The position numbers were made by a program, and so were the translations under genes. Positions 7,712 through 27,879 of a stretch of 64,000 nucleotides of DNA are shown here, piece by piece (position 1 is the first letter of the stretch; each line of letters opens with the position of its first letter). The notes under the pieces were generated by a model. It did not search any database. It saw only the letters and a program-made list of their open reading frames with translations, and was not told where the DNA came from. The DNA is from an uncultured Nitrospiraceae bacterium (GTDB lineage Bacteria; Nitrospirota; Nitrospiria; Nitrospirales; Nitrospiraceae), in the NCBI GenBank assembly GCA_963706325.1, contig CAVPLT010000002.1:96001-160000 (forward strand). The letters run 5' to 3'.

Positions 7712-9144
7712 TTAGTACATCCAAAACAAGAAACTGGAAAGTGCGGTTACAGTCACGGTTACAACTAGCGTGTTGAGCGAGCAAGCGGCGTCAGGTATGT
7801 ATGCATAACTGTTGAAATTTGGCGGAGGGGGCGAGATTTGAACTCGCGGATAGGTTACCCCATCTCCGGTTTTCAAGACCGGCACGTTCGGCCACTCCGT
7901 CACCCCTCCAGTAGGTTTTTCTTCTAAGTAGTCAGTAGGTCGTGCAGATGCTCTCGTGAGCCGCCTTTCGTCAGGTTGCGGCTGGGTTGCGTTTTGGACC
8001 TTTTCTTCGTGCGTTTTCTCCGTTCTCTCTTGTGGGTCATCGAGCTGATGGACGTGATGTCGATGATCCCCCTGAAAGAGGTGGGAGTATATATCGAGCG
8101 TGATGCTAATGCTACCGTGCCCGAGCTGTTGTTGGATGTATTTGGGATTGGCTCCCTGCTGAATGAGCAGCGATGCAAAGGTGTGCCGTAAGTCATGGAA
8201 GCGGACATGTCGCAATCCGGCCGCCGTCAGGCAGGCCTGAAGGCGTTGCGCACGAGTTCATTACTCATCCGTTGGTGGGTGGGCCCGATGAAGATCCAAG
8301 GCGCTAGCGGGTCCCCCTTCATGGCCGCCTCGAGGGTCCGCGTCTCCTTCAACCGCTGGAGGACCTGGGCCAGTTGCGGGGACATATCCACGCGGCGGAT
8401 CTTGTGGGTCTTGGTTGTGGTGATTTGTCGGCGCACGATCGCCCGTCGCACTTCAATGAACTGGCCGCGAAAATCGAGATCACCCCACTGCAAGCCGAGC
8501 AGTTCTCCCTGGCGCATCCCGGTTCGCACCGCACAGAGGAAAAGGGGATAGAGCAGAGGAGCCGTGTGCTGCGCCTGGTGGAGGACCGTCCGCACATCCT
8601 CGGCTGTTAAGGGGTCAATGTGAGCGTCGGTCGATTCGCGAGACCGCAGCGACCGGCCCATATTCGACACAGGGTTGGCCGTCACGATGCCATCATCAAT
8701 GGCATGCTGGTAGGCTTCTTTCAGCGGCGTCAGGATGTTGTGAATGGTCCGCTTCTTCTTGCCCTGGACGAGCCACTCGGCAATGAGCCGCTTGATATCC
8801 GTGCGAGTCACTTCATGGAGGCGTCGCGTACCGAGTTCAGGAATGATGTGATGCTCGAGCACGATGCGATAGCCTGAGGCCGTAGAGGGTTTGCAATGCG
8901 CCTCCGCATAGACCCTCAGCCAGTCTGTGAGATAGGCCGCAACTGTAGGAATCGCGCCGTCTTTCGTGGCTAAGGTGATCGCTTCTCCACTCTGTTCCGC
9001 CCATTTCAGCTTAGCCGCGAGCTTGGCGGCAAACGCCTTTGCAAGGGCTTTATCCTTCCCGAAGAATTTCGCCTTGCGCTGCCCGTTCCAGTCCGTGAGC
9101 ACATACCACCCTTTGCCTGGTCGTTCCCGTACTTTTACACCCAT
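7712..9144 (-). CDS. int: Tyrosine integrase; 1-nt frameshift near 8235; reading frame runs through att into the tRNA
   Basis: Catalytic motifs TGMRQGELLGLQWGD, TKT, RHVRFHDLRHTFASLLI and LGHGSISITLDIY. ORFs 8227-9144 and 7712-8215 join if one base is added at TTC AG GCC TGC. Confidence 0.92.
7820..7909 (-). tRNA. tRNA-Ser(TGA), intact copy at the left junction of the element
   Basis: Reverse complement GGAGGGGTGACGGAGTGGCCGAACGTG-CCGGT-CTTGAAA-ACCGG...GAGTTCAAATCTCGCCCCCTCCGCCA. Confidence 0.96.
7869..7910. repeat. att core, left copy (42 bp, 5' half of tRNA-Ser)
   Basis: gttttcaagaccggcacgttcggccactccgtcacccctcca, identical to 26477-26518. Confidence 0.95.
7972..7991 (+). promoter_or_regulatory. 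Putative integrase arm-type sites (GGTTGCG x2, 11-bp period)
   Basis: caggttgcggctgggttgcg; same motif, period and orientation as 26362-26382. Confidence 0.65.
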
Positions 9145-9149
9145 GGTGG

Positions 9150-9365
9150 TTAGTCTCCTCTCCGGCTGGGGCGGTTCGGTTGTTCGTCTCTCATAAGATC
9201 ACAGACGGTCACACCCAACGCGGTCGCTAATCGTTTCAGCGTCGATAGTGAGGGGTCAGCTTTGCCTCGTTCGACATGGGAGAGGAAGGTCTGAGACATC
9301 TTGGCCTTGAGTGCCAGGGCGTCTTGCGAGAACCCTTTTTTGAGTCGGATCGCTTTCAGCAGCAT
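9150..9365 (-). CDS. XRE-family HTH regulator
   Basis: LKAIRLKKGFSQDALALKAKMSQTFLSHVERGKADPSLSTLKRLATALGV; possible TTGACT-N17-CATGCT promoter just upstream (near-leaderless). Confidence 0.88.
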   Translation of the reverse strand: MLLKAIRLKKGFSQDALALKAKMSQTFLSHVERGKADPSLSTLKRLATALGVTVCDLMRDEQPNRPSRRGD

Positions 9366-9399
9366 ACTGTAACGAGCATGGTTAGTATGAGGGGGAAAG

Positions 9400-9651
9400 T
9401 CAAACAGAGAGTTCGGCCACGACGGAATCCACGAGTCGGTCCAGTTCGCCCGGTTGAGTGGCCACGCGAAAGCGAGTCATCCAGGCATCGAACTCATTGG
9501 TCTTCTCTAAGACTTTGCCGCCAATGCGATAGAATGGGAGGGCACAGTTCCGATCTGTCAGCCGATCGCGCAGCCATCCGACCGAGCAAGAAGAATAGAC
9601 CGCCAAGGTCTTGAGATCGAGGTAGGCGGGTGGTGGAGTGGATGGGTGCAC
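9400..9651 (-). CDS. Excisionase-like winged-HTH protein
   Basis: YLDLKTLAVYSSCSVGWLRD...LPFYRIGGKVL...EFDAWM, typical of Xis/HTH_17. Confidence 0.7.
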   Translation of the reverse strand: MHPSTPPPAYLDLKTLAVYSSCSVGWLRDRLTDRNCALPFYRIGGKVLEKTNEFDAWMTRFRVATQPGELDRLVDSVVAELSV

Positions 9652-9663
9652 GTCAGGTCTCAG

Positions 9664-9993
9664 TTAGAAGCCGGTTATATCCTTAGGCGTCTTGCGATGC
9701 TCGATGGCTGCTGGGGCATCAATGACCGTCGCCTGGCTCGCCGGACGCTTTGGGTCGCGTTGAATAATGACGTTGATCGTTGCGTCAGTGGTGTTTTTGA
9801 CCTCGACTGGAATTAATCTGCTCGCGATCTTGTAAAACTCGGTCCGATTTTTCTTGGCCCACTCCGTGAACGCCTCATGTCCGCCAGCTTCGTTGTAGGC
9901 AATCTGGACGGCATCTCGAAACGTGCCCGTTAATCTGTTGGCCACACCCACTTTGCGTCCCCCTGTCTTGGCTCGTCCCCGTTGAAATGGCAT
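9664..9993 (-). CDS. Putative terminase small subunit-like phage protein
   Basis: MPFQRGRAKTGGRKVGVANRLT...WAKKNRTEFYKIASRLIP; this KTGGRxxGxxNK-type N-terminus is common in small phage packaging-region proteins. Confidence 0.55.
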   Translation of the reverse strand: MPFQRGRAKTGGRKVGVANRLTGTFRDAVQIAYNEAGGHEAFTEWAKKNRTEFYKIASRLIPVEVKNTTDATINVIIQRDPKRPASQATVIDAPAAIEHRKTPKDITGF

Positions 9994-10009
9994 TCTTTTT
10001 CCCTCCGGT

Positions 10010-10267
10010 TCAGAACGTGCGAACCGCTGTGACGTATTTGGTATTCACGGCCGCCCATCCGTCGGGGAGGGTGAGAAACGCCCAGACCGTGCCGTCTTCC
10101 TCGTGGTGGATGGCATCAACCTCCGCTGGACCTCGCAGCTTCCCATCATTCCCTAGCCAGGTGATTTGCCGGACAGGTGCCTTTTGTTCGTGGGGCTGTT
10201 CCACACTCAGGTTCTCTTGTTGCTTCCTGGCGGCTTCGACTTGCCGGATAATGTCGAGATATCTCAT
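10010..10267 (-). CDS. Hypothetical protein
   Basis: GGAGG SD, 85 aa, co-oriented within the operon. Confidence 0.6.
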   Translation of the reverse strand: MRYLDIIRQVEAARKQQENLSVEQPHEQKAPVRQITWLGNDGKLRGPAEVDAIHHEEDGTVWAFLTLPDGWAAVNTKYVTAVRTF

Positions 10268-10289
10268 GTCCTTCCTCCCGCTTGGCTTA

Positions 10290-10358
10290 CGAATTAAACG
10301 AAAGAAACGAAATAACTGCCTTGTCGGCGGAGTTAATTCGTTAAATTCGTTTCTTTCG
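10290..10358. repeat. Inverted triplets of 9-bp iterons; putative replication origin
   Basis: CGAATTAAA CGAAAGAAA CGAAATAAC, 15-bp spacer, then the inverse triplet (rc CGAAAGAAA CGAATTTAA CGAATTAAC), at the 3' end of the helicase gene. Confidence 0.65.
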
Positions 10359-11733
10359 TTCCACGATGCCACACCGTCTTGTGCCGTCCTCCACCCTCAT
10401 TGGTCTCTGTCACGGGATGGGCCAGCCCCGCCCGAGTCAACATGGCCTTAGCTTGGGCGAGTCGAGCCGCCGACACGTTGCGGGAGAACAGAGCCGAAAC
10501 GCTGGTATCGTCCAAGCTGCCATGCGCCTCTATGGCGCGTAAGATCGTATCCGCGTGAGGATCGCCGGTGTTGTCCCCCAAAATGTAGCGGGTCGAGGCC
10601 TCGGCATAGCTCCAGAGCGCACAGGCGGCAGAGAGGTGCACGGACTCAATGACGGCTTGCCCATCGAGGACCGCATAGAGGGCTGCGAGGCGCATGACCT
10701 GAGACTCCGCACGCCCGAGGAGATCGCCGGCCATGCCAGGACGTTCTTGGGAGAGCGCATGATACAGAGCGGCCCAGACAGGCTGGGCGTCCGAGGCGAG
10801 CGTCAACGGCGACATGCTGCGGCCGGCTTGGAGCCGTGCCCGAAGTCGTCGGCTCAGCGCGTCCATTTCAGCAGGATGGGGACTTGAGGGAAAGGGCAGC
10901 TCGTTGGAGGACCGTTTCACCGCAATCCACACAAATCGATTCCCGAAGCCGTTACAGGCTTCCGTACTCGTCAGATTTCTCAAAAGTTCATTCTGCGTCA
11001 CGTGCCCGACGATCCCCACGTGAGGGGCGGTGGCCCGGATCCGGTTGCCCTTCGTCATGGGCGCGAGGTCTTTGCCGTCCCAGGCGTCCTGCAACACGCC
11101 CGAGAGACTGTTCCCGTCCCGCTCCATGACGCGGAGCACCACGCCAAATTCGGTTTGTACGAGAAAGAGCCGCTTGTCTTCGATGCCGCTATCTACGAGA
11201 ACTCGTTGCGTCTCTCCGGTTAACTTTCCGTTCTGTCTGATCGGCTCTTCTTTGTATTGAGGATCTCGGACCGAGAAGGCCAAGCCTTCACCGCTGGAGA
11301 GCGTGCCGCGACATTCGCCACGGGTCCACACCGGGTCTGCGTGTTGGCACAGACTTTCAATGCGCTTGTCCGCCGTGCCCTTCCGGCTCTTGCTGGATTT
11401 CCCCACGAGCACCGGCCAAAACAGAAGCGGATGATACCCGCCGTCCAAGATGAGGTGCGGCGCGCGGCCCAACATGACGCCGACCTCCGACAGCAATGAG
11501 ACGAGCAGCGCCACAGGGGCGGCTTCAGTATGTGGCTCGTACAGCCGGACCACCTCGCCCGCCAGTCCATGCAGCGCTTCATCGTTCAGGGTGGGCCAGG
11601 TGTCCGCTATCGGCGCCGGCTCTGCGGACTCAGGGACTAACGGGGCTATCCGGTCAAGAAAGTGATCATGAACAAGCTCCGTGTCAGTCTTAGTGAATCG
11701 CTCGACTTGCTGGAGAAATGCCGTGTCACGCAT
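10333..11733 (-). CDS. DUF3987/YfjI-type replication NTPase/helicase
   Basis: WPTLNDEALHGLAGEVV, Walker-A-like LVGKSSKSRKGT, SSGEGL, EFG, DAWDG, NGFGNRF. Confidence 0.8.
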   Translation of the reverse strand: MRDTAFLQQVERFTKTDTELVHDHFLDRIAPLVPESAEPAPIADTWPTLNDEALHGLAGEVVRLYEPHTEAAPVALLVSLLSEVGVMLGRAPHLILDGGYHPLLFWPVLVGKSSKSRKGTADKRIESLCQHADPVWTRGECRGTLSSGEGLAFSVRDPQYKEEPIRQNGKLTGETQRVLVDSGIEDKRLFLVQTEFGVVLRVMERDGNSLSGVLQDAWDGKDLAPMTKGNRIRATAPHVGIVGHVTQNELLRNLTSTEACNGFGNRFVWIAVKRSSNELPFPSSPHPAEMDALSRRLRARLQAGRSMSPLTLASDAQPVWAALYHALSQERPGMAGDLLGRAESQVMRLAALYAVLDGQAVIESVHLSAACALWSYAEASTRYILGDNTGDPHADTILRAIEAHGSLDDTSVSALFSRNVSAARLAQAKAMLTRAGLAHPVTETNEGGGRHKTVWHRGTKETNLTN

Positions 11734-12182
11734 GTTGCAGACCCTCCGCTTCCAATAGTTGCCACGCACGGCCGACGGGATCGAGCGCCGCGGCGAGTCC
11801 ATCATCGGTCCAGGCTTCAATGGAAAGTCCATGGGCCGCTCGCACCAGGGAGTCCGCTTCTCGGAGCACATCCGCCTGCCGGCCGTTCGCCTTCTCAATT
11901 GCCTCCCGTGCCGCTTTCCTGTGCCCGCTACTCCCACACGCGACGACGCTCACCCGAATCCCATTCGCCGCTATCAAAGAAGAGGTCTGAAATTCTGAGG
12001 CCGAGCGTGCGCGTAATGTCTTCAGCGCTGCAGCCAGCCCAACACTTGAGTAAGACACCGCGATCTCCTTCTCTCACGCTGAGGCTGGGGGAGCGGTCAT
12101 CATGGGAGGGACATCGCGCGAGCCAACTTCGAGGGGTCTGCTTCGCACCGTCCACGAGCTGAACGAAGGCATTGATGGTCAT
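11726..12182 (-). pseudogene. Primase-type Zn-binding domain protein, interrupted (TAG plus frameshift near 11930)
   Basis: ARCPSHDDRSPSLSV...LLKCWAGC (CHC2-like). The downstream frame KAAREAIEKANG...LQHA ends overlapping the helicase ATG. Confidence 0.7.
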
Positions 12183-12385
12183 CGTGTGGTGACCCTGTTC
12201 TCTTGCAAGTCCAGCAAGCCAGCGATGGCTCGGTGTGCCTGTCGAATTAACTCGCGCTGCTCCGGAGTCCACGTCTGTTGTCGCCACACTCGCTCCAACC
12301 ATTCGACAATCAAACGAAGGGCTCGCGAGACAGTGAGAGAGAAGGGTGTCTTGTGAATGGATCGCAACTCACGTATTGTCCTCAT
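12179..12385 (-). CDS. Hypothetical protein
   Basis: 68 aa; ATGA overlap with the next gene. Confidence 0.55.
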   Translation of the reverse strand: MRTIRELRSIHKTPFSLTVSRALRLIVEWLERVWRQQTWTPEQRELIRQAHRAIAGLLDLQENRVTTR

Positions 12386-12474
12386 TGTTCAGGGGGTCCT
12401 TTCTATTTGAGCCGGTCGAGGAGGTAATGACTCCTCGCCGGCTTTCCCTTTGTTAGACCGTGTCATCGCTCGTG

Positions 12475-12678
12475 TTATCCCACCGTCGTGCGATTTCTGA
12501 GCGCCTGACGAACTTCCGTGAGTGAGAACCGCACGCCTCGGCCTTTGACTCCCACTTTGTAGGCTGGGACTCGGCCAGCCTTCGCCATTTTGTAGAAAGT
12601 CGCTTTTGGCAAGCCTAGTGCAGCCGCGCATGCATCTGCGTCGATTAGAGGCGCTTCGGCAGTTGATGTAGATTCCAT
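12475..12678 (-). CDS. AlpA/excisionase-family HTH protein
   Basis: LIDADACAAALGLPKATFYKMAKAGRVPAYKVG...VRFSLTEV. Confidence 0.82.
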   Translation of the reverse strand: MESTSTAEAPLIDADACAAALGLPKATFYKMAKAGRVPAYKVGVKGRGVRFSLTEVRQALRNRTTVG

Positions 12679-12803
12679 GATCTCTCCCCGGTGTTGTGCG
12701 CTTCACCTCGAAGCACACTGATGCTCCAGGAATACCACCAGGAAGAAATGGGGAATACTGCCGTTATGGGATGAAGGTAATTAAAGAAGACAGCTGGGAG
12801 ACT

Positions 12804-13439
12804 TTATTTGCGACCGGTGGGCCTGCCGCGCTTTTTCTTTTGATCGCGCGGATCAATAGCACGGAGCCAGAGTTGAAGGGTTCTATCACTGTATTTGTCT
12901 ACGAATGGTTTCAGTCCGGGTGAATTGATGATCTCCTTGAATGTTGCCGTGGGATTCAGGGCCCATTCTTCCTTGCCAATTTGTTGCACGCTGGGTTTGT
13001 CGACAAAATCCGGCCGCTTCCTGACGGCGACTTTGGCATGGTAACCTTTTACGGCTACATCGCCAGCCAACAGACGCAGGCCTTCCTCCTCACCAAGCTG
13101 AACGGCTTTAGAAATCTCCACAAGTGTTTCGAGGCCATCGTCATAAGTCGGCATCTTTTGTTTCACCAGAACCATGACGAGAGCTGCGTACTTGTATTCA
13201 ACTTGATACTCAAATTGTTTCCGGAGGTCTTCGTAGGTCATCCGACGTTCTATTGCCAAATGAAAGAGCTTGGTTCTTGCCGAATAGAATCTGCTCATGC
13301 ATGGTTTTTGGATCCAGTCAGGCGGAATCCCCTTGATGCCGTCATAAGGCGCCTCTAGCCATGTCTCTAATTCAGGGGCCGAAGACGGAGGAGACGGTTC
13401 TTGAACGGCCGGTGTTGTGAAAGTCGGCTTCTTCGGCAT
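12804..13439 (-). CDS. Hypothetical protein with a possible C-terminal DNA-binding region
   Basis: AGGAG SD, 211 aa, ends YSDRTLQLWLRAIDPRDQKKKRGRP; it occupies the regulator position upstream of alpA. Confidence 0.6.
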   Translation of the reverse strand: MPKKPTFTTPAVQEPSPPSSAPELETWLEAPYDGIKGIPPDWIQKPCMSRFYSARTKLFHLAIERRMTYEDLRKQFEYQVEYKYAALVMVLVKQKMPTYDDGLETLVEISKAVQLGEEEGLRLLAGDVAVKGYHAKVAVRKRPDFVDKPSVQQIGKEEWALNPTATFKEIINSPGLKPFVDKYSDRTLQLWLRAIDPRDQKKKRGRPTGRK

Positions 13440-13554
13440 GTCCACTCCTGCGTGTGGGCCTGGTGAGAGGAGGGCAGTACCAGCTCCAGGAAAGCTGGCC
13501 GATCGGGTGATCAAGCCCGATCGTTACTGCCCGTGTGAGTGTAGCGTTAGAGAA

Positions 13555-13923
13555 TCACGATGTGAAGTGCCGCGTTGCGGTGAATAAGGCCGCAACGAGC
13601 TCAGGATTCTCCTCGCGCCACTGTTGCCAACTTTCATCGGTGAGCTTCCACGCAAGCCATTCCGGATGGTCTGGCGAGGGCGTAAACGGCTGACGATTCG
13701 CCTTGCAGCGTGCGCATCGTTGTGGCCGTCGCGCGATCATAAAGAGATGGCTCCCGCAAAAGTACAGTCCGCATCCGTACTCGCCGCCGTATGGTTGTCC
13801 ACCGCACACATAGGCCAACCCGCGATCGATCTCTTTCCCGCACCCTGGGTGGTCACAGTAGACGGGTACTCCATGCCCGATATCGCGCTTCCAATTCTCG
13901 TCATACCCTAATGACCAGCCCAT
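13555..13923 (-). CDS. Cys-rich phage-type hypothetical protein
   Basis: MGWSLGYDENWKRDIGHGVPVYCDHPGCGKEIDRGLAYVCGG...GCGLYFCGSHL...CARC; GGAGG SD. Confidence 0.75.
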   Translation of the reverse strand: MGWSLGYDENWKRDIGHGVPVYCDHPGCGKEIDRGLAYVCGGQPYGGEYGCGLYFCGSHLFMIARRPQRCARCKANRQPFTPSPDHPEWLAWKLTDESWQQWREENPELVAALFTATRHFTS

Positions 13924-14061
13924 GACGTGTCCTCCTCCATGAACCCCTCAACCCGGCCATGCTTCCCTCACCTCGCGGGAATGGTGGACGGTCATCTGAG
14001 CTGGTGCTGAGGGTACTGGTGCCGGTGGCATTCGTATCAACTCGTTCAGACATCACCCACA

Positions 14062-15059
14062 TCAGCTCCACGCCATGGTTTCGGCCAAGCGATACTCTTG
14101 AGAGACAGGTTCCGCGTCCGTCTCTGCTGGCTTCAAGGCCCACATCCAGTCCGCATAGGCCTGAATGATTCACTGATTTTCTCGAAATTCAACCGCGTAT
14201 AGATGGCCACCGGCCTGGAGTCGTAGTGGTTCAGTACGGCTTTTGCCGTTAAGTCATCGGCTTTGATCTCGTTATACAAGTAGGTGGCCAGCGTGCGGCG
14301 GAAATCGAGCAGCCACAGGTCGGGCATGTTCAGTTCAATCCTGAGACGGTCCCACACCTTCCTCGCCGAGCCTTCACGGAGACTATGTCCGTAGTGTCCT
14401 GGAAAGACAAAGTCGGCGTTTCTTGGGAGCGCACGAATGTAGTGAAGCGCCTGGGTAGGAATCTGAACAAATTGAGGCCGTTTATTTTTGGTGAATCGCT
14501 TCAGCCACTTCCCGTTGTCATCGATCGCATCCCAGCGCATCTCGCACAATTCCTTGATCCGTCCAGGTACCAAAATGCGGCAGGCAAAAAACGCCTGATA
14601 CTTGGGAGACAGGTACTCCAGGGCTCCGAGGAGAGCCCTGATTTCGTTCCGGTCCATGACCCGTTCACGCGGGATGTAGTCGTGCTTATTCACCCTCCAC
14701 GCGGGATTGTGTCCCTCGTAGATCGGGCGTCGGGTGAGTGGGTCAATGCGATCACTGGCCCAGCTGTAGGCCTGCTTGATGAGCCCGAGAGTCTTATTTG
14801 CCTGTGATGGCACGGCCTCCAGGGATTGCTTGAGCAGGAGCACGTCATACCGAGTGATAGCACTCGCGAGACGATCCCGCCATTTGGGAGTATCGAAATA
14901 GAGTTTATAAGTGTATTCGTATGCCCTACCACTCGAACGGGAGCCGAGATGCTTGAGGTATCCCTGCATGAGCGCACCGAACGTAATCCCGTTGTTGATC
15001 TGTTCCGGCACGGCCGGTAGGGGCGTGGGTGGTTGGTCCGTCAGAACATTCATCATCAC
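14062..15059 (-). CDS. Second tyrosine recombinase/integrase; 1-nt frameshift near 14166
   Basis: GRIKELCEMRW, TKN, LDFRRTLATYL, VLNHYD...IY. The C-terminus continues IIQAYADWMWAL...AWS* if one A is added at GA ATC. Confidence 0.82.
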
Positions 15060-15122
15060 TTGTCCTTTCCATGAGCTGTGCGCGGGGAAGCAAAGGCCTC
15101 CCCCGCATGGGTCCTGGATGGG

Positions 15123-15398
15123 CTACCCCTTCTTCCGCTTCAGCTGCAGTTCCAGTCGTCGCACCTCTGTCGCGCTAAGCTTCGTGATGTCGTGTCGCGC
15201 GATGTAGGCCCACGGCCGCTGCTTGCGTTCCCGCTTCAGATCTCGGACGGCTTCGCGCAGATCATCGGTGATCGTGCCGCATGACTCGAAGGGCCCGTAG
15301 TCCGAGTGGTCTGTGCATACTTCATATTGAATTTTTGTGAGCGTGTTTCCCTCCGCAATCACACGGGGTGAGGCTTTCTTAGTGGCGTTCTTCTTCAT
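15123..15398 (-). CDS. Hypothetical phage-like protein
   Basis: MKKNATKKASPRV..., AAGGACAGGA SD, 91 aa. Confidence 0.5.
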   Translation of the reverse strand: MKKNATKKASPRVIAEGNTLTKIQYEVCTDHSDYGPFESCGTITDDLREAVRDLKRERKQRPWAYIARHDITKLSATEVRRLELQLKRKKG

Positions 15399-15588
15399 GG
15401 TTTCCTGTCCTTTCTGTCTGTTTGGTGCCTCTTCCCGCGATGGACAACAGGTGTTCCAGCCGACTGAGCGAGATGCTGGTACCGAGTTTGGACTGTAACC
15501 GAAGGCCACGACCGCCGCGCCCGTTGCGCATGCGCCCGTGGTCATTCGCGGGGGAGCGAAATTGTTTAAAGTTCATCGGGTCGGCTCC

Positions 15589-15903
15589 CTATTCGTTGAC
15601 TACCTTAATCTTTGGATCCAGGTGCTGGAGAATCACCATCACCTCATCGAGGTTCGTCCTGATTTGGTCGAGGTTCTCCGCGAACAATTCCATTGTCGCT
15701 CTCATGTCGTGGCGGTCGGTCTTTGCACTTTCTGAAGCAGCGGGTGTGGCACTCGCGATCATGCGCGCAATGCTTTCCAGCTGGGTCACTTTGTCAAACG
15801 AGTGGGCGGTCATGTCGTGCGCCCATGTCAGCGTGCCATGTTTCGATTTCCAATCATCCATAATTCCCTTGACGAGTGTGGGCTTCGTGGTGGTTTTTGG
15901 CAT
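15589..15903 (-). CDS. Hypothetical helical protein
   Basis: AAGGAGG SD, 104 aa. Confidence 0.65.
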   Translation of the reverse strand: MPKTTTKPTLVKGIMDDWKSKHGTLTWAHDMTAHSFDKVTQLESIARMIASATPAASESAKTDRHDMRATMELFAENLDQIRTNLDEVMVILQHLDPKIKVVNE

Positions 15904-15948
15904 GATGCCTCCTTGTGACTGTGCGGGTTGCTGCCGGGGCTTTTTCGC

Positions 15949-16110
15949 TCACTTCCCTTTCTGCCCTTTCATGGGCGGGCTGAAATGTTGCGTGAGTAAC
16001 CGCCGTATCAGCCCGCTGGCCGTGGTGCCTTCGGCGCGCATGGCGCTGAGCTTGCTCTTTATTGACTTTGGAATTTGGATTTTCAGTCGTTCCATGGGCT
16101 CCGGTTTCAT
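15949..16110 (-). CDS. Ribbon-helix-helix protein
   Basis: MERLKIQIPKSIKSKLSAMRAEGTTASGLIRRLL; AAAGGAG SD. Confidence 0.72.
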   Translation of the reverse strand: MKPEPMERLKIQIPKSIKSKLSAMRAEGTTASGLIRRLLTQHFSPPMKGQKGK

Positions 16111-16137
16111 GCGGTCGTCTCCTTTCATTAAGCTACT

Positions 16138-16212
16138 ATGGGACCATGGTATCATGGGACCTCAATGGGTCAAGTGTGTCCAATTGACACCCATGAAGCG
16201 TTTCGCTACCTT
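16138..16212. promoter_or_regulatory. Back-to-back sigma70 promoters with ATGGG(A/T)C repeats
   Basis: Plus strand TTGACA(16184-89)-N17-TACCTT(16207-12); minus strand TTGACC(16173-68)-N16-TACCAT with extended TG; ATGGGACC x2, ATGGGTC and an inverted CCCAT. Confidence 0.6.
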
Positions 16213-16220
16213 TGCGCCGC

Positions 16221-16394
16221 ATGGAACAAGAAGACACAAAGAGGCAACAGATGGGTGTGCGCATAGCAGCAAACCTCATCGTCGAATCGAAGGTTTTAGC
16301 AGCTCGTCAGAAACGTAGATTGAACGAGCTAGTCGAGGAGGCCCTGCAGGATCTCTTGAAGAAGTACGCGAGTGCGAAGAAGAAATCAGGTTAG
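16221..16394 (+). CDS. Ribbon-helix-helix (Arc/Mnt-like) repressor
   Basis: RQQMGVRIAANLIVESKVLAARQKRRLNELVEEALQDLLKKY; ATG 8 nt after the -10 box (near-leaderless). Confidence 0.78.
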   Translation: MEQEDTKRQQMGVRIAANLIVESKVLAARQKRRLNELVEEALQDLLKKYASAKKKSG

Positions 16395-16408
16395 TCGGAG
16401 GGACCGCT

Positions 16409-16765
16409 ATGTCACTTTCATCTGCACCACTCAACCACTGTCCTGCCCCACTCGTGCCAATCATCTTGGAGGTTATTGCGGCGCACAATTCAGCCATGCC
16501 GAGTGCGGGCGAAGGCATCCACGAAAAAAAGATTGAGATGGCCGGCAGCGAATACGATCAGTTGCTGGTGCTCTATTACGAATCCTTTGGGAGCCCCTTC
16601 TCCTGCAATGATCCACAAAAAGGAGTGACGTACACCCTGTCTTTCGTCGACAAACCGGCCGTCGTGCACGAAACCATCACCAACGCGGCTCGCCACTATA
16701 CCGCTCGTGTGAAACTGATGAAATTGCCGCCGCTCCCGGATCTGGAAGACCAACCTAGTCCATAG
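16409..16765 (+). CDS. Hypothetical protein
   Basis: GGAGG SD, 118 aa. Confidence 0.55.
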   Translation: MSLSSAPLNHCPAPLVPIILEVIAAHNSAMPSAGEGIHEKKIEMAGSEYDQLLVLYYESFGSPFSCNDPQKGVTYTLSFVDKPAVVHETITNAARHYTARVKLMKLPPLPDLEDQPSP

Positions 16766-16794
16766 CTCAATAGGACATTTCATAAGGAGAGCCG

Positions 16795-17043
16795 ATGAAC
16801 CACCCCATGCCAGGTATTATGTGGGCGCTTGTTCGACAGCAAATCCAGGTGGAAGCCATCATTAGCGCGCTGGCCGTACAACAGCCGTCACTTCCTCAAC
16901 AGATCATGGCGCAGCTTGAGACCTTACGAACAAGTGGTCGTGTAAAGGAAATCATCGCCGAGGTCTACGAGCAGGTGAATCAGGCGGAAGACGGGGCGTG
17001 GCTCAGCCGACACGGGATACGCGACCCGGCCACGGGCAAATGA
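16795..17043 (+). CDS. Hypothetical protein
   Basis: AAGGAG SD, 82 aa, helical. Confidence 0.6.
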   Translation: MNHPMPGIMWALVRQQIQVEAIISALAVQQPSLPQQIMAQLETLRTSGRVKEIIAEVYEQVNQAEDGAWLSRHGIRDPATGK

Positions 17044-17189
17044 GGCAAGATCAAGCCCCGCTCTTCTCTGGAGTAATTCCATGACCGTTCCGACCGGTAA
17101 GAAGTGCCCACGCTGTGGCAGAATCATGAAGCAGAGCGCTGGCATGCAGCCTGGCGCGATTCAATTATTTTTATTACCTGGAGATTGAG

Positions 17190-17654
17190 ATGAACATGTC
17201 ACTGCCTCTCAGCCGGGCTGGAGTGGCCCAAACGGCATTCGGGATATGGAGAAGTGGTCCGACTGTGGCGTGGGTCCTTGTTATAATGATTTGGGGGTTG
17301 CCGCTAGCTGGATGCACGAATCCACCAACCCGGCCTGTGCTTGGGGCGTTTACTGGAGATGAGCGCGAGATAACCTATCTCGACCAGGTGCGACGGCGCG
17401 ACTCCTCTGCGCTCCAGACTCCGGAGTCGGTCCACAATGCCCTATCCTTCTATCGCGACATGAAGTTCCAGCAACGCGCCCTTTTTCTTCGGTTCCACCG
17501 ACAGTACCCCGAGGCGACACCGCAGGAAATGGCGACCCTGGTGCAGGATGCCCTACCACGGGAGACGCGTTCTGACCTTCCGAACATTCCACCACCAGCC
17601 TTCCAGTGCTTTAGCGTGAACGCAGGGAAAACCCAATCCCTTTCCTGTAATTGA
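17190..17654 (+). CDS. Putative lipoprotein (start uncertain)
   Basis: Hydrophobic stretch followed by lipobox LAGC. Confidence 0.5.
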   Translation: MNMSLPLSRAGVAQTAFGIWRSGPTVAWVLVIMIWGLPLAGCTNPPTRPVLGAFTGDEREITYLDQVRRRDSSALQTPESVHNALSFYRDMKFQQRALFLRFHRQYPEATPQEMATLVQDALPRETRSDLPNIPPPAFQCFSVNAGKTQSLSCN

Positions 17655-17847
17655 TCAGTATTAATGGCCGCAATGCGTTTCAAATGTTGTCATGAAGCTG
17701 CGCACTGGCACTCAGCCATGGAGCGGGATCTGGACCTGGGTGCGCTGCAAAAATGAAACGGTGAAGAAGCGGGAGTAGTCTCGCCGGCACAAAGCTATTT
17801 CAGTCGTCGGTGCTCATGCTCCTCACAAGAAAATTGAGAAGGCGCGA

Positions 17848-18069
17848 ATGTTCCCTCCAAGCTTTGATCTCCATGTTGGTTTGCCCTCAATGGCGGTGGG
17901 CGTCGCATTGTACTTTCTTCCCACAATCATCGCGTGGGTGCGGGCGCATTACAATCGTGTCGCGATCTTGATGCTGAACCTCCTACTGGGTTGGACCGTC
18001 GTGGGATGGATCGTATCTCTAGTCTGGTCCTTTACTAATCCCCCACCGAGCACCCATCACCAGGCATGA
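17848..18069 (+). CDS. Superinfection immunity protein (T4 Imm family)
   Basis: LYFLPTIIAWVRAHYNRVAILMLNLLLGWTVVGWIVSLVWS signature. Confidence 0.88.
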   Translation: MFPPSFDLHVGLPSMAVGVALYFLPTIIAWVRAHYNRVAILMLNLLLGWTVVGWIVSLVWSFTNPPPSTHHQA

Positions 18070-18509
18070 CGCTCTTCAAACTCGGCTTGCTCTTATTCTG
18101 GACGCTCTGGCTTCTGATCGTGTTTCTCACCAATCTCTTTGAGTGGCTCAAGGTGCTGCGGATCGTCCCGCCGTACTGGAAATTCGCCTCTTCAAATTAT
18201 CAGGCCATCGTCCAAGCGACTGGCATCTATCAGGCACCTGAGTGGGTGGCCAAGGTTTTGTTCCTCGGCGTGCTCATCTGGCAGTGTGGAACGCTTCTCG
18301 CGTTCGGACGTGCGCTCCTGTCCATGTGGTGGTATGGAATGTGGCTCTTGGGCCCCGTCATGGAGGCCTTCGCGGCGAGCTTAGGACTTCTGGCCGCCTT
18401 TATCCTAGCCGATGAGATCTTCAAGCAGTATGACCTTGAGCGGGCACACCTCCTGTTGTTCATCGCTCAATTACTGACGGTGCTCTCGATCTATGTGTTG
18501 CCTGCCTAA
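18066..18509 (+). CDS. Four-TM membrane protein
   Basis: 147 aa hydrophobic ORF, ATGA-coupled to the Imm gene. Confidence 0.72.
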   Translation: MTLFKLGLLLFWTLWLLIVFLTNLFEWLKVLRIVPPYWKFASSNYQAIVQATGIYQAPEWVAKVLFLGVLIWQCGTLLAFGRALLSMWWYGMWLLGPVMEAFAASLGLLAAFILADEIFKQYDLERAHLLLFIAQLLTVLSIYVLPA

Positions 18510-18750
18510 GCGTTGACCAGGATTGCTTGGATTCGAGTACGGTGACACAAGTCATTCAGCCTCCTGCAGTCTCCACGTATTGGGAAGTCCACCCGCTGGC
18601 ACCTTCTGCGCGTACAGCATTGCCGTCCTAACTCGTAATGGCTCTTCCAGCGAAGGCATACCGGCTCCGATCCCCCACGAATGTCACCACTGGGCAAGTC
18701 CTAGGGGCTTGCCTACTGCCCTGGACTGTTTGGACGGCGCACCATAGCGC

Positions 18751-19201
18751 ATGACTAACCTACAAAAATTACCCCATATCTCTCTGGCCGAGGTGCAGGC
18801 CAGCTCCGAAGCCGAGGGACATCCTCTTCTCCTGGCGTTTGACGACGGGACGGGGCCTGGAGGGACGTACTGGAAGGCGGGTGATCCAGGGGAACAGACG
18901 ATTACCGTGACGTTCCGGGAGCCCTGCACGCTCGCGCAGATCACCATGGAAGTGGAAGAGCGGGAAGTCGAACGCACTCAGGAGGTGCAGCTCGCGTTGT
19001 CGGTTGACGGAGGACAAACGTATCGAGAACTCGTCAGTCAGGAGTTCAACTTCAGCCCGCAGGGTGCGACGTGGGAACAAGAAACCTGGCAACCCCCCAA
19101 GAAGACCGAGTCACCAATCTTCGATTAGTTATCAAGCCCGATAAAGGCGGACCGAATACCATGCGACGCTGACCTCTCTGAGTTTGTGGCAGGCGGCCTG
19201 A
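18751..19201 (+). pseudogene. Galactose-binding/discoidin-like protein with two C-terminal frameshifts
   Basis: SSEAEGHPLLLAFDDGTGPGGTYWKA...RTQEVQLALSVDGGQTYRELVSQEFNFSP; continues VTNLRLVIKPDKGG and ATLTSLSLW in shifted frames. Confidence 0.6.
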
Positions 19202-19460
19202 CATGACATTCCCTCTCTTCGATTGCCTTTACGCGAATCCCTTCTCACCCTGGTGATTAGCCTCTACCATTCTTACAACAAATATACGCAAAAACCCTAT
19301 ACATTTATGACCGTTACCTATATAATCGGATCCATGGTTTTCACCCCTTCACCCGGCAGCGACACTGCCATAACGGAGCCTGTTATGGATGCGGTCGATG
19401 CCTGAGCTCTCTAAGCCATCCCGCAGGCGCCACACCTTAATTAGAAAGGTAGGTGCCCGC

Positions 19461-20336
19461 ATGTGCAGCCCCTCACCACCAGCCACGCCCGACTTCAAAG
19501 GCGCTGCCCAAGAGCAGGGAACCGCAAATATTGAGGCGGCGAGGGCTCAAGGGAAATTAAACAACCCCAACGTCTACAGCCCTTACGGCTCGCAGACCGT
19601 CTCCTATGACGGTGATCAGCCGACCATCACGCAATCCTTCTCGCCTGAACAGCAGGCCATCTACGACCAGGGCAATGCGACGAAGCTCCAACTCAGCCAA
19701 CTGAGCGGGCAAGGGGCGCAAGCCCTGCAAGGCGTGGTCGGCAAGCAAGTGGATTTCGGCGGGGCTCCAGCTGCCCCTGGCGATTACTCGTCCATGCGCA
19801 ACCAGACCATCGACGCCATGATGGCGCGTCCAAAAGAGGACTACGCCAGGGCCACCGATCAAGCGCAATCCGACCTCGTAGCTGCAGGCATCCGCCCCGG
19901 CACCAAAGCCTACGACGACAAGATGAATCTGCTCCAACGCGGGTTGAACGACGCAGGCACGCAGGCCGCTGTGAATTCCGGCGTGCTGACCTCGCAGGCC
20001 TATCAGATGGATATGGACCGCCGCAAGCAGGCCATTACCGAACAGCTGGCACAACGTCAAGTGCCGCTCAACGAAATCACGGCGCTGATGTCAGGATCGC
20101 AAGTCTCGAACCCCTTCTCCACACCAGGCTTTGCCCAGAACGCGCAAGTCGGCGCCGCGCCGGTGTTTGCCGCGCAACAGGCTACCAGCCAATGGGATCG
20201 AGACAATAACAACGCCGACCGCGCGGCAATGGCTGGCCTCCAGACCGGCATGTTCCAATTGGGTGCGGCTGGGATCAGTGCGATGGGTGGTGGCGGCGGA
20301 GGCGGGAAGGGCGGGACCACGAACAACTACTATTAG
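19461..20336 (+). CDS. Phage DNA-transfer/ejection-type virion protein (orphan)
   Basis: MCSPSPPATPDFKGAAQEQGTAN...NNPNVYSPYGSQT..., Q/A-rich helices, GIRPGTKAY, QRQVPLNEITALMSGSQV, Gly-rich tail; resembles podovirus internal virion proteins. Confidence 0.62.
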   Translation: MCSPSPPATPDFKGAAQEQGTANIEAARAQGKLNNPNVYSPYGSQTVSYDGDQPTITQSFSPEQQAIYDQGNATKLQLSQLSGQGAQALQGVVGKQVDFGGAPAAPGDYSSMRNQTIDAMMARPKEDYARATDQAQSDLVAAGIRPGTKAYDDKMNLLQRGLNDAGTQAAVNSGVLTSQAYQMDMDRRKQAITEQLAQRQVPLNEITALMSGSQVSNPFSTPGFAQNAQVGAAPVFAAQQATSQWDRDNNNADRAAMAGLQTGMFQLGAAGISAMGGGGGGGKGGTTNNYY

Positions 20337-20423
20337 GCTTAAAACGACTACTCCCACCATCACAATTCTGCCTGGCCGCAGGGTCTCGGCCCGAGGCGTT
20401 TGGGAATAGCAAAAACGGCGGAC

Positions 20424-20843
20424 CTATGGTTCCGGAGTCTGAGTGGCCTTAACCGATGCCTCGGTGCATTCCGCCTCGATGAAGGCCGCCGTTGCATCGC
20501 GTCTCTCCCGAAGGGTTTGCTCGACTTCCGTGATTCCTTTATCCCGAAAATCCACAATCTCTCCATCTAGCACGGATAGGTTCGTGATGGATTGTCGGCA
20601 CTTACGGTCTGCCAAGGCCCGCAGATGTTGTTTCAGGATCGCATGTTGTTTGCTATGAGCGGTCTCGCGAACCGAGTTCATCCCGGCCGTGTCGCCCAAT
20701 GCCTTCGTAGCCTCCAATAACTCTTCCGGAATTGGAGTCTGATCAAAGACGGCCTTCAATTGTTCGACACTGTGAGCTCGCGCAGGAGGCGAATTGAACA
20801 GCAGGACACCTATGCATACATAGAAGAAGTAGTGCGCTCTCAT
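20424..20843 (-). CDS. Exported hypothetical protein
   Basis: Signal peptide ending ARA; 139 aa. Confidence 0.6.
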   Translation of the reverse strand: MRAHYFFYVCIGVLLFNSPPARAHSVEQLKAVFDQTPIPEELLEATKALGDTAGMNSVRETAHSKQHAILKQHLRALADRKCRQSITNLSVLDGEIVDFRDKGITEVEQTLRERRDATAAFIEAECTEASVKATQTPEP

Positions 20844-21564
20844 CGGTAGGCCGCCTTTCGTGTCGCGATCGCGGGTCGAGTATATAACATTTGGGTTCCT
20901 GTTCTACCTGACCCCGACTGTCCTGGTCCTGGACGTCAGACGGTAGCACCCTGGTGGCCCATCGCCCCCTTTACCTAGTCGGTGCTCTTTGAGGGCCGTG
21001 AGTCACCGCCCTCCACTCCCACGGCGGTACCGGATGCGGTTCAGCCCATTACATTCGATTCACCATCGGGACCTGGAATCCAACTCCATCAGCCTAGGCA
21101 TCGCAGTCTAGGCCGTGCCTCCTGGGATGGACCACGATCTTTTCTATTACCAGGTTTTTCACTAGTACCGCACCCCTTCCATGGGTGATCCAATGAAACC
21201 ACCTGAGTCTGTCGGACAACCGAGGGGAGACATTTAACACACTCTTCACTGAGCTCTGCCATGTGTAGGAGTTGTGACGTTGGGCAATGCTCGAGGCAAA
21301 GCTGATCCCCGATAAAAGTGCCTACTATTATCGCACGTGCTGATTGATGCCGGCTGTCTCACCGGGGTTGCCTCGCAATCGCGGTCTCGGGTGGGTGAGA
21401 TATAGCCATCTCTTCCAATTCCTACCCAAGCCTTTTTGAAAGGATCCTTATTCGGGAGGGGAACGACTTCAGGGACTCGTACCCCCGCCACCCCCGTTCC
21501 GCCCAGTTCGGGCAGCACACTTTCGAACTGCTGAATGTTCCGAGAACGAATCAGAGGCTATTCT

Positions 21565-22428
21565 ATGGCACCACTGCCTCGTGCGCTCCTTGCCGGTTTC
21601 CTGTTTCTTGTCCCCATCTGCACCTTCGCCGGATGTTCGCTGCTCAACCTTCCGGCAGCGATCCAGGGCGGATATTCCGTGCATGAGGCATCCTACGGCA
21701 CGGGCCCATTAGATAAACTCGACATTTATATCCCACGCGTCAGCCGTAAGGACAAACACGATGTCATTGTTTTTTATTATGGCGGCCGCTGGCGGTATGG
21801 GAAGAAAGAAAATTCTCGTTTTGTGGGCGCGGCGTTGGCCCGCCGAGGCTACGTGACGGTGATTCCAGAGTTTCGCAAATATCCTGAGGTCCATTTTCCG
21901 GTCTTCGTGGAGGATGGGGCGAGGGCGCTAGCATGGGTAGATGAGCACATCGCGGAGTATGCCGGGAGACCTGACCGCATCCACCTGGCAGGTCACTCGT
22001 CAGGGGCACATATGGCGGCACTGTTGACAGTCGATACGCACTATCTGGCAGCCGAAGGGAAGGACGCACGAGTGATCATAAAAGACTTTGCGGGATTAGC
22101 CGGCCCATATGCCTTTACCCCCGCAGACAAAGACCTCGTGGAGATCTTCGGCCCTCCCGACCGGTATCCCCAGATGCAGGCGACCACGTTCGTGAAGGGG
22201 AAGGAACCCCCCATGCTCTTGCTCTACGGGGTAGAGGACAAGACCGTTCTGTCCTATAACCATGAACGACTGGCACAGCGCATTCGTGAAAAAGGCGGCC
22301 ACGTGGAAGTGATCACGTATCCGGAGCTCGGTCATATTGGCATGATCGGCACCTTCTCTGGCTTCGGACCGCATTCTTCAGTCGTCGATGATATGACCAC
22401 GTTCTTTAAGACTCGGAATGGTGACTAA
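21565..22428 (+). CDS. Alpha/beta hydrolase (esterase) lipoprotein
   Basis: Lipobox FAGC, YGGRW oxyanion motif, GHSSG nucleophile, EDKTV, LGH. Confidence 0.88.
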   Translation: MAPLPRALLAGFLFLVPICTFAGCSLLNLPAAIQGGYSVHEASYGTGPLDKLDIYIPRVSRKDKHDVIVFYYGGRWRYGKKENSRFVGAALARRGYVTVIPEFRKYPEVHFPVFVEDGARALAWVDEHIAEYAGRPDRIHLAGHSSGAHMAALLTVDTHYLAAEGKDARVIIKDFAGLAGPYAFTPADKDLVEIFGPPDRYPQMQATTFVKGKEPPMLLLYGVEDKTVLSYNHERLAQRIREKGGHVEVITYPELGHIGMIGTFSGFGPHSSVVDDMTTFFKTRNGD

Positions 22429-22789
22429 GGCACGATATCTCCGAGAGCGGCGATGGCTACAAACTGCAGTGACAGTCGCCGCCTGTGTCCCGGTACTCGC
22501 CGGTGGCCTGGGAATGATCGCCGGGACGGCCATGCTGTCGAACACCACCGGGATCTCTCTTGATAATCATGTCCGTTATTTATCCGGTGTGTTATTCGCG
22601 ATGGGGCTGAGCTTTTTGGCCATCACCCCTAATATTGAGATACACACGGTGCCCATGCGGCTCTTAACGTTTTTAGTCGTGGTTGGCGGAGTCGCCCGTC
22701 TGGCGAGTGCTGTCTTTGTGGGGATGCCTTCCAGTTCGATGCTCCTTGCCATTGTTATGGAGCTGGTAGTGACACCCTTGTTGTGTTGA
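22418..22789 (+). CDS. DUF4345-type membrane protein (probable premature TGA near the C-terminus)
   Basis: LDNHVRYLSG, VGGVARL, ELVVTPLLC*WQSR. Confidence 0.7.
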   Translation: MVTKARYLRERRWLQTAVTVAACVPVLAGGLGMIAGTAMLSNTTGISLDNHVRYLSGVLFAMGLSFLAITPNIEIHTVPMRLLTFLVVVGGVARLASAVFVGMPSSSMLLAIVMELVVTPLLC

Positions 22790-22971
22790 TGGCAATCGCG
22801 ACTGGCGACACGGCCGTCAAATCTCTGATAAAGAAGTTAGCTATCCTGGATTCACCTTCAGGTGCCTTCGTATGCTTTTTCCGGCCTCCTCCAGGGCCTG
22901 GTGTGACCGCCAACCGTGCATGCTCGTGCCTCATGATCAATGCGTCGGTTATGGAGCATATGTCGTTGTTC

Positions 22972-23287
22972 TCACCCTCTGGCCACCAAATCGTCAGTCC
23001 TCAACGTGACCGTCTTCTTACATCGAGGACATCCCCAGTCGTTGAGGTCTAAGGTATTGCCAAAAACGACCGAGCTTCGCCTTTTGATAAAGCGGCTGCT
23101 GGCACATGGGGCAGGGGAAATGGTAGGTCTCGTCAATGATCCGCCAATCGATTTGATCTGGCATTTCCTTGTGTCGCTTCTTCTCCAGATAGGTGAAGGT
23201 AGCCCGCTTCGCATGGCGAACGGTCTCTTCCAGGGCGTTGAATCGCATCGGACGCAACAAGGCAGGATCGCTCACATCCTCCCTCAT
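22972..23287 (-). pseudogene. Small Zn-ribbon-tailed hypothetical protein, frameshifted
   Basis: CPMC in one frame and CPRCKKTV in the next. Confidence 0.35.
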
Positions 23288-23383
23288 CCCGCCGCGCTGT
23301 ACTTGGCAGCGCTTGAGTTGCCAATAGGACTCGAACGACACGTGCTGTTGAACCTCAAGCCGGACGATCATAGATCCTATCCT

Positions 23384-23692
23384 TTACGCTCGGTCATGTG
23401 CTTCGGCGTAGCCGCGGAGTCGGAGCTGGTCCTCCTCGGTCATGCTGATAAACTCGATGCCGGCTTCCCCCTGTGTCGCCCATCGCACCATCCCGACATC
23501 AATACGCACTGACGGGTGACGATCCACCTGCATCCGCAGTTGCACGCTTTGGCCTGGCTCTAAGGGGTACGCAGTCTCTACCCGACAACCCGGAACGGTC
23601 AGATCCCTTACCCGGCCTTCCCAATGGTGGCTTCCGCTGGTGACGATGACCAGGCCCGTGATCGGCTTTCCGAGACTATCTCCTGGCTTCAT
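23384..23692 (-). CDS. PilZ-domain protein
   Basis: GRVRDLTVPGCRVE...VRWATQGEAGIEF. Confidence 0.8.
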   Translation of the reverse strand: MKPGDSLGKPITGLVIVTSGSHHWEGRVRDLTVPGCRVETAYPLEPGQSVQLRMQVDRHPSVRIDVGMVRWATQGEAGIEFISMTEEDQLRLRGYAEAHDRA

Positions 23693-23738
23693 GGGTGCTC
23701 CTCATTGAAGAGAGTTCGTGGAGTGGAGAAAAATGGCT

Positions 23739-24059
23739 TCAGGCCGCGATAAGGGCCGAGGATTCCACGAGGCAGCGCTGCAATTGATCCTGGTCACGGG
23801 TGGAGAGGTCGCGAAATTCCACGGTGAACTCGTCCCAATGGCTCCAGATCACCTCGGCCTTCTGGACCCGGATCGGCCAGGCACTGCCGGGCAGGTAGAT
23901 GCGGAGCTCCAACCTGGCACCGGGTTCGGGGTGATGGGCGGTCTGAATGCTGTACCCGGTGGCCGAGAGGCGATCCACCCGCCCGGTCCACTCACAGAAC
24001 TCTCGGGCGGCGGCAGGACGATAATCTACTCGGCAGGGTACCTCGATCGTCGGCGCCAT
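23739..24059 (-). CDS. PilZ-domain protein
   Basis: LSATGYSI...LELRIYLPGSAWPIRVQKAEVIWSHWDEFTVEF; AAGGAG SD. Confidence 0.78.
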   Translation of the reverse strand: MAPTIEVPCRVDYRPAAAREFCEWTGRVDRLSATGYSIQTAHHPEPGARLELRIYLPGSAWPIRVQKAEVIWSHWDEFTVEFRDLSTRDQDQLQRCLVESSALIAA

Positions 24060-25911: not shown

Positions 25912-25997
25912 GGAGTGGTCGTCATCCCAACCATTCATAGAGATGTAGCAGCACCGCGAAGGCCGGGGGGGTCTTTCTGGGGCCTAACGGCAGTTGA

Positions 25998-26262: not shown

Positions 26263-26361
26263 CCAGTAGACGCAGCACGCAAGGCTGCCGTGGAGATGTG
26301 TGTAGCTAGGCCAGGGGTGCCCTTTATTGGGGTGGCCCCGCCGACAAACCGCGTGGGTCTT

Positions 26362-26538: not shown

Positions 26539-27879
<1,341 letters not shown>

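Follow-up and report, generated by a model that had tools for sequence, protein, structure and literature searches.

The window, i.e. the whole stretch of 64,000 nucleotides that was analysed, harbors an integrated element whose ends are marked by a perfect 42-bp direct repeat at 7869–7910 and 26477–26518, 18,608 bp apart, exactly where a first-pass annotation of this DNA had placed it. The repeat is the att core and equals the 5′ half of a tRNA-Ser(UGA) gene, a correspondence that the annotation did not state; the tRNA and the integrase gene int lie on the same strand. ARAGORN detects this tRNA at 7820–7909 and no second tRNA-Ser(UGA) in the assembly, and the cloverleaf fold of the rebuilt gene has a z-score of −2.66. 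The features around the two ends are the following:

26539..27864, minus strand: host serS (PF00587/PF02403), which natively precedes the tRNA, with a sigma70-like site at 27855–27883
26477..26518, minus strand: host-side copy of the att core, the tRNA 5′ half that was displaced, some 20 nt past the end of serS
7911..26476, no strand: island body, 18,608 bp with one core copy, from the repeat spacing and the empty sites of relatives
7869..7910, minus strand: int-side copy of the att core (exact repeat), 42 bp, the tRNA 5′ half through the anticodon loop
7820..7909, minus strand: rebuilt tRNA-Ser(UGA) (ARAGORN), 5′ half island-derived, 3′ half host-derived
7974..7990, minus strand: arm-type repeat on the int side, 82 nt ahead of the tRNA; its codons spell NATQPQP
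26365..26381, minus strand: arm-type repeat in the opposite attP arm; in the circle it lies 135 nt past the start of the tRNA

Among 20 loci of the same family, fetched around single matches, serS lies just upstream of the whole tRNA in 19, and the tRNA is whole in all 20; the sole locus without an adjacent serS, L323, holds an int remnant. Since the serS–tRNA pair is uninterrupted in relatives, the island parts tRNA-Ser(UGA) from serS and re-heads it: after integration, 18.6 kb separate serS from the complete tRNA, which now follows int immediately and in the same orientation. The identity of the repeat stops two bases into the 3′ anticodon stem in the window, and in four relatives (G250, G383, G582 and G594) one core base, base 16, differs between the fragment and the full tRNA, which locates the crossover 3′ of base 16. 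Judged from these repeats, the island recombines at the anticodon loop of tRNA-Ser(UGA). Behind the 5′ tRNA fragment we found neither a terminator nor a stable fold. The circle joint (26476 to 7869) is absent from the contigs of four public runs out of 20 listed, all used as contigs, an absence that carries no weight against a circle; the one joint from 7910, in run X11 (side 20), most likely comes from the arm repeat of a related element. The genome contains two occurrences of the 17-nt arm-type pattern, and islands of relatives show it at comparable offsets; its int-side copy has low synonymous change (pS 0.06). By analogy with known attP layouts, the pair would represent arm-type sites.

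The remaining island contents comprise:

9150..9365, minus strand: HTH_3 gene ending 5 nt before int, a candidate regulator or excision factor, found beside int also in relative L343
10333..12302, minus strand: primase-like gene (PHROG primase) and CHC2 zinc-finger gene (PF01807, weak), a replication module
14133..15059, minus strand: second tyrosine recombinase, 308 aa (PF00589)
17848..18069, plus strand: membrane protein of the superinfection-immunity type (PF14373; phrog_1039)

No NCBIfam model reached its cut-off in the island. A 315-aa ORF at 19389–20336 matches phrog_6121 ('virion structural protein', E 2e-40); it stands alone, as nothing else in the island was recognised as a head or tail gene. 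Parts of the island between 11650 and 26360 match other places of the same genome (G000) at 72–93% identity, namely C4 671–686 kb, C4 233–235 kb, C1 353–361 kb and C7 315–333 kb, which suggests that related islands in this genome form a family whose members exchange modules.

The integrase gene in this genome

The integrase possesses an N-terminal SAM-like/core-binding domain and a catalytic domain (PF14659 and PF00589 above cut-off, together with a phrog_1 match), encoded as follows:

8227..9144, minus strand: int N-terminal ORF, 305 aa, ending early (PF14659; PF00589 positions 3–115 of 172; phrog_1)
8239..8242, minus strand: frameshift, one base missing compared to L001, L047 and L051 (alignment; contigs of runs X1 and X2)
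7712..8257, minus strand: int C-terminal frame, out of frame with the start codon (PF00589 positions 113–169)
7712..7868, minus strand: tail of the integrated state, 16 tRNA-coded residues and 35 from the DNA behind the tRNA, unconserved
26458..26476, minus strand: codons that would end Int in the circle (DSHSS, stop)

The N-terminal ORF contains the SAM-like domain and the first part of the catalytic domain, while the second frame contributes the HxxR box, the catalytic tyrosine (codon at 8089), a 60-codon tail, the reading through the tRNA and a host-derived end. The catalytic residues are hence split over two frames in the window, whereas they lie in one frame in L047 and L202–L214, and the frameshift near 8241 precedes both HxxR and tyrosine. 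The first-pass annotation stated that the int frame reaches the core without a stop. For the entire gene this is incorrect, as the ORF from 9144 stops at 8227 after 305 aa. It stands for the HxxR/Tyr frame, which is open from 8257 to 7712–7714 and lacks the stop between 8050 and 7911 that the annotation had named as a refutation of its proposal. The translations it gave are likewise correct: the integrated frame reads GGVTEWPNVPVLKT over the core and then GDGVTYPRVQISPPPP...LSSFLFWMY*, and the computed circle junction ends ...PVLKTDSHSS*.

The frameshift as an assembly error is ruled out by contigs from two studies, either of which may be the source sample of the assembly: a contig of run X2 spans 7881–9387 with 0 differences and 0 gaps, and one of run X1 spans 7827–8473 with 12 substitutions and 0 gaps. 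Such a comparison is able to see indels, as an inserted base at 16166 appears in all four runs; there an extra G follows the position, and the assembly probably contains a one-base error. A programmed frameshift was also considered; we saw no slippery motif by eye, and three relatives carry the extra base. The int of the window is thus a pseudogene, and neither tail should be made. Since int is frameshifted ahead of the catalytic residues, the island is probably locked in.

Reading of the integrase frame into the tRNA in relatives

Loci for comparison were collected by a DNA query with the int tail over 371 genomes of the family and by protein queries, and many show int followed by a tRNA on the same strand. 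The catalytic Tyr codon and the tRNA are a fixed 180 nt apart, and this in-frame spacing is conserved in relatives: among 16 non-redundant 5′-type representatives, the frame continues beyond the anticodon in nine, and each of these has a spacing of exactly 180 nt. Reading into the tRNA is found for 5 of 6 intact or contig-cut int genes versus 5 of 10 broken ones; the one 'intact' case that is not read through, at a tRNA-Cys, aligns in two pieces and may be broken itself. In a clade of 29 rows taken from a tree of 114 proteins, 16 proteins read into the tRNA and 13, often their sisters, stop at +26 to +62. One protein cluster stops at +44 in all six members, and another, of ten, has six members that read through and four that stop early, among the latter P0023, a frameshift variant; some early 'stops' may thus reflect decay. 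The first-pass annotation had asked whether related integrases also lack a stop before the core: 16 of the 29 proteins do, and the other 13 do not.

The second copy of the core allowed the other C-terminus to be predicted. The 5′ fragment was found in 15 of 20 genomes searched; it is absent at ≤2 mismatches from G560, G571, G038, G503 and G393, although G038 has a decayed fragment. Its continuations read DSSPS, DKEPT, DSDTSEPQ, DSDPQQPSKTP and D(L/V)DPQEPPKTA, and one fragment in G536 runs on into a different element. P0150 is a full-length integrase that ends exactly in DLDPQEPPKTA, i.e. in the attP form predicted from the two ends of the islands, and P0137 has a second attP-type ending with a non-tRNA tail of 21 aa. 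These endings imply that attP-type junctions exist, either as circles or in tandem arrays. All attP endings are short (5–21 aa) and polar and begin with Asp, and otherwise share no motif; the integrated tails, of which 24 are distinct, measure 4 to 101 aa beyond their tRNA-coded residues and have no end in common. Hence the central claim of the first-pass annotation, that att lies inside the int frame and recombination alters the C-terminus, holds across many relatives, with P0150 and P0137 as proteins in the database. By these comparisons the tail swap is real in the clade, but optional.

Distant 3′-type relatives read into their tRNA as well (32 of 44 intact representatives, 26 of them past the anticodon, against a null of 42%); on these counts, reading over att is a habit of the family and not special to this element. 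Among viruses, close relatives were scarce: one search of IMG/VR gave a single match of 32%, a second gave one close contig (L231, 72%) within its best 80 matches, and a third gave this contig again; the best matches among GenBank phages were about 30%.

Several loci show other uses of the same layout. The clade occupies the 5′ half of a tRNA-Cys(GCA) in L341 (G440:C21; 42-bp repeat about 7.3 kb away) and that of a tRNA-Ser(CGA) in L342 (G450:C4; 41-bp repeat about 4.4 kb away). An intact 400-aa relative in L213/L340 (G295:C1, about 1696600–1697900) stops 47 codons after the Tyr, lacks TATACT and is followed by an apparent tRNA-Ser(GCU) 5′ half left uncompleted. In L343 (G009:C13; positions 242–302 and 3265–3354), tRNA-Ser(UGA) is used from both sides, with a 5′-type int upstream and a 3′ fragment (bases 30–90) 3 kb downstream. 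G536 (L175, L180, L184 and L185) has four core copies, two on one contig 13.8 kb apart, which probably represent a tandem array of different 5′-type elements.

We then asked what is conserved in the tail. With the 180-nt spacing, codons 18–59 are free of stops in 10 of 10 divergent representatives versus 6 of 50 control frames. Codons 40–59 are stop-free in all 11 tails of a set that omits the indel loci L136, L137, L138, L155 and L160 and early-stop proteins without DNA context, while a neutral simulation gave a mean of 4.6 (P ~0.001). The tail frame is thus, as far as these alignments tell, open more often than neutrality predicts, which counts against a mere by-product of reading. The residues behave differently: from pooled, non-independent pairs, dN/dS is 0.05 for the catalytic part versus 0.48 and 0.79 for two tail segments, suggesting that the tail sequence evolves nearly freely. 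AlphaFold assigns P0004 a pLDDT <50 from residue 373 on, so the tail is predicted to be a disordered extension, and the swapped part begins 74 residues after the catalytic Tyr. Eleven integrated tails had sufficient length for a hydropathy score, and that of the window ranks first (KD19 1.63), a peculiarity of this genome; the VTVTV stretch in it is read off a GTAACC-type DNA repeat. We found no conserved degron in either the attP or the integrated set of tails.

Some further observations concern the same DNA. The GTAACC-type repeat (7750–7775, 50–75 nt past the tRNA 3′ end) occurs also in L313, L320 and L328, i.e. in 3 of 20 relatives, and may be an arm site of a decayed 3′-type island; the G+C content is lower (0.50) at 6001–8000. 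The tRNA 3′ end (7820–7831) is read in the int frame as four consecutive prolines in every integrated form, which we take to be a possible EF-P-dependent stall. An ATTGA(A/T)TT-like word at about 7928–7945, 25–38 nt before the tRNA in the window and relatives and with several early stops nearby, resembles an IHF site.

A promoter-like motif in the catalytic codons

The rebuilt tRNA has lost serS as its upstream neighbor, and a candidate for its promoter lies within int:

8086..8114, minus strand: promoter-like TAGCAT-17-TATACT inside the catalytic motif, candidate promoter of the rebuilt tRNA with a leader of about 170 nt

This motif occurs once in the genome. With a two-box matrix learned from G000 it scores a modest 4.8, about the median of the training set, and in most of 22 loci TAG(C/T)AT-17-TATACT, ending about 176 nt before the tRNA, ranks no lower than fourth. 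TATACT over the catalytic Tyr codon is present in 21 of 24 5′-type rows versus 1 of 59 3′-type rows; these rows are related, and the counts are not independent. It is missing from three 5′-type rows: L311, the row of the tRNA-Cys locus, and a row whose int is unrelated and flanks a tRNA on the opposite side. TATACT needs an ATA or GTA codon; in this genome, 6% of Ile codons are ATA and 8% of Val codons are GTA. A scan of 58 codons in 12 rows, two or three of them frameshifted further upstream, flagged only two third positions. One is where the −35 box begins, with T in all 12 rows (expected 0.20; Gly/Ser/Cys codons), and the other is the second base of the −10 box, A in 11 of 12 (expected 0.07; ATA and GTA).

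Decayed islands point to the same region. In G035, G506, G503, G038 and G450 the match is confined to the last 330–650 nt of int, and in L323 (G244:C1, about 146200–146480) some 240 nt of int, delimited by eye, are left before the tRNA, with TATACT and the 180-nt spacing kept; these remnants were found with a query from the int 3′ region and are biased in what they retain. L323 also has a stronger site, TTGCCA-16-TACAAT, that ends 9 nt before the tRNA. The −35 box TAGCAT matches the consensus poorly, and a plain consensus scan of 7600–9700 returned 0 sites. Directly before the tRNA, no promoter is shared among the 22 loci, with a strong one only in L323 and a weaker one in L159. Taken together, codon usage and conservation suggest that the motif within the catalytic codons probably transcribes the rebuilt tRNA.

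Known systems and competing explanations

Phage Mx8 reportedly loses a much longer integrase segment on integration. The first-pass annotation had compared the locus to this phage, aptly so, as attP lies in the coding sequence behind the catalytic domain. The integrases of Mx8 and Mx9 carry attP inside int (PMC6070905, PMC11610982), and integration gives Mx8 int a new 3′ end with changed specificity (PMC6070905). Mx8 and the relatives studied here share a tyrosine integrase, an attP in its coding sequence, the new 3′ end and a catalytic domain that stays whole; attP lies within int in the clade, in the window only within the out-of-frame piece. Unlike in Mx8, the core here is a tRNA 5′ half that is read in sense, read-through is optional in the clade and the window copy is frameshifted, and the attP ending of 5–21 aa is unconserved, i.e. 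there is no substantial conserved C-terminal segment of the phage state.

As an island, the element resembles those with a 5′ fragment in Islander, of which excerpts report 159 among 3919 (~4%; PMC4383910). It has a full tRNA with a 5′ fragment upstream on the same strand at a distance within the range of 2–200 kb, a crossover in the anticodon loop, an integrase gene in between and an uninterrupted target in related genomes (the 19 of 20 loci above). The Islander account allows for Mx8/SSV-type overlap, and its excerpts describe neither a promoter in the catalytic motif nor in-frame read-through of the tRNA (PMC4383910). Islands in 'reversed orientation' appear in the title of Zhao & Williams 2002, as cited in PMC6563490 and PMC1635311, and the available parts of PMC12540744, PMC3448106 and PMC12884075 add nothing on this point.

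The pTN3-like archaeal 'suicidal' integrases likewise have att inside int and a tRNA 5′ half as target (PMC8371274, PMC5495485), a situation described as seldom seen in bacteria; their int is broken into an N and a C part on integration, and the tRNA is transcribed from the integrase promoter (PMC8371274). In both cases the tRNA is cut off from its own promoter: that of pTN3 is expressed from the element, and here a promoter-like motif is conserved, which, unlike in pTN3, seems to be internal to int. Different from pTN3 and SSV1, the core starts 180 nt after the Tyr codon, the enzyme is whole in relatives rather than split into int(N) and int(C), and the protein is a bacterial one with PF00589/PF14659 and no PF16795 hit in a Pfam scan. 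In mycobacteriophage BPs, attP lies in the repressor gene, the free form of which carries a degradation tag (PMC3694055, in part). As in BPs, the C-terminus of a protein is altered by recombination within its gene, with a possible effect on stability; unlike in BPs, attP lies in int, the HTH gene is 1.2 kb from the core, and neither the attP nor the integrated form has a conserved tag-like end.

The explanation we favor for the locus as a whole, at about even chances, is a packed int 3′ end with the tail swap as its by-product and a locked copy in this genome. The element is an integrative island with a primase, and its tyrosine-integrase clade uses tRNA-Ser(UGA) in a rare orientation. It brings a tRNA 5′ half at the end of int, such that integration rebuilds the tRNA behind int, and promoter, leader, arm site and half-tRNA would be packed into the int 3′ end; in most working relatives the ORF is read over this whole control region. 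Because it is read over att, the circle gives an ending of 5–11 residues and the integrated form tRNA-coded residues plus whatever DNA lies behind. We consider it likely that the internal promoter feeds the rebuilt tRNA, in which case the host could not do without the island at this end. The tail swap would, quite plausibly, be mainly a tolerated consequence of packing, the tail being a disordered extension with unimportant residues that several lineages dropped.

RNase P processing and trans-translation are established processes, and together they offer a different role for the tail at the level of RNA. That tRNA processing would cut the int mRNA, as the first-pass annotation had suggested, is plausible. 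The integrated int mRNA holds a whole sense tRNA, so that a cut by RNase P at the 5′ end of this tRNA would leave the message stop-less and have its protein tagged by tmRNA for degradation, whereas in the circle the half-tRNA would stay uncut and a stop follows 5–11 codons on; selection would keep the frame open and ignore the residues. Such an off-switch would account for an open frame with free residues, and the short proper endings of all attP forms, the arbitrary integrated tails, a full tRNA that folds as a cloverleaf where the half-tRNA junction does not, and a tmRNA in the host genome all fit. We regard it as possible but doubtful, as 13 of the 29 proteins in the clade end ahead of the core, 3′-type relatives read antisense tRNA about as often (32 of 44), where the mechanism cannot work, and it is inoperable in this frameshifted copy. 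Equally tentative is the joint proposal that this integration sensor (sense int–tRNA fusion, RNase P and tmRNA) acts together with a Tyr-codon promoter that feeds the essential tRNA and makes the island end undeletable.

Alternatively, the two C-termini could differ in Int activity or site preference and thereby separate integration from excision. The layout is that of Mx8, where the new 3′ end alters specificity (PMC6070905, in part), attP endings are consistently short, polar and Asp-initial, and proteins of the attP form exist. A protein switch of this kind is nonetheless unlikely, given that the swapped part lies 74 residues past the catalytic Tyr in a region predicted to be disordered, that an attP ending of merely 5–21 aa has no motif beyond the first Asp and that early-stop lineages exist. 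The first-pass annotation had proposed that the long hydrophobic tail of the integrated state may repress Int, possibly as a degron; a membrane anchor would be a related reading. Although the tail of the window tops the hydropathy of those scored, either role is very improbable: the 24 tails (4–101 aa) are unconserved, the tail region is predicted to be disordered and nearly free in sequence (dN/dS 0.48/0.79), part of the window's tail derives from a DNA repeat, and the int start codon of this genome lies in another frame than the tail. The annotation had named homologues without a frame into the core as counter-evidence, and such proteins do exist (13 of 29); its state-dependent tail falls for this genome, where int is broken upstream. 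Since int is out of frame here, no tail mechanism can act in this copy.

Both att-in-int (Mx8, SSV1, pTN3) and islands that replace a tRNA 5′ half are already known; this clade combines them in a bacterial integrase whose frame runs through the tRNA in sense, a combination that seems to be new. In the titles, abstracts and passages covered by a literature search, we found neither RNase P/tmRNA control of an int–tRNA fusion nor a tRNA promoter within an integrase catalytic motif; the primary papers on Mx8/Mx9, Williams 2002, Zhao & Williams 2002 and the TIGER paper may already contain parts of these findings. As the integrase of the window is broken, the significance for this genome is modest. 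In the clade, 5′-type members carry a two-box motif in rare codons over the catalytic Tyr that is nearly absent from 3′-type members. If this motif is the tRNA promoter, it shows how the target orientation can flip without silencing an essential tRNA, and it explains why decayed islands leave an int stub before the tRNA. If the RNase P/tmRNA step were true too, the clade would have a new control of integrase level by integration state.
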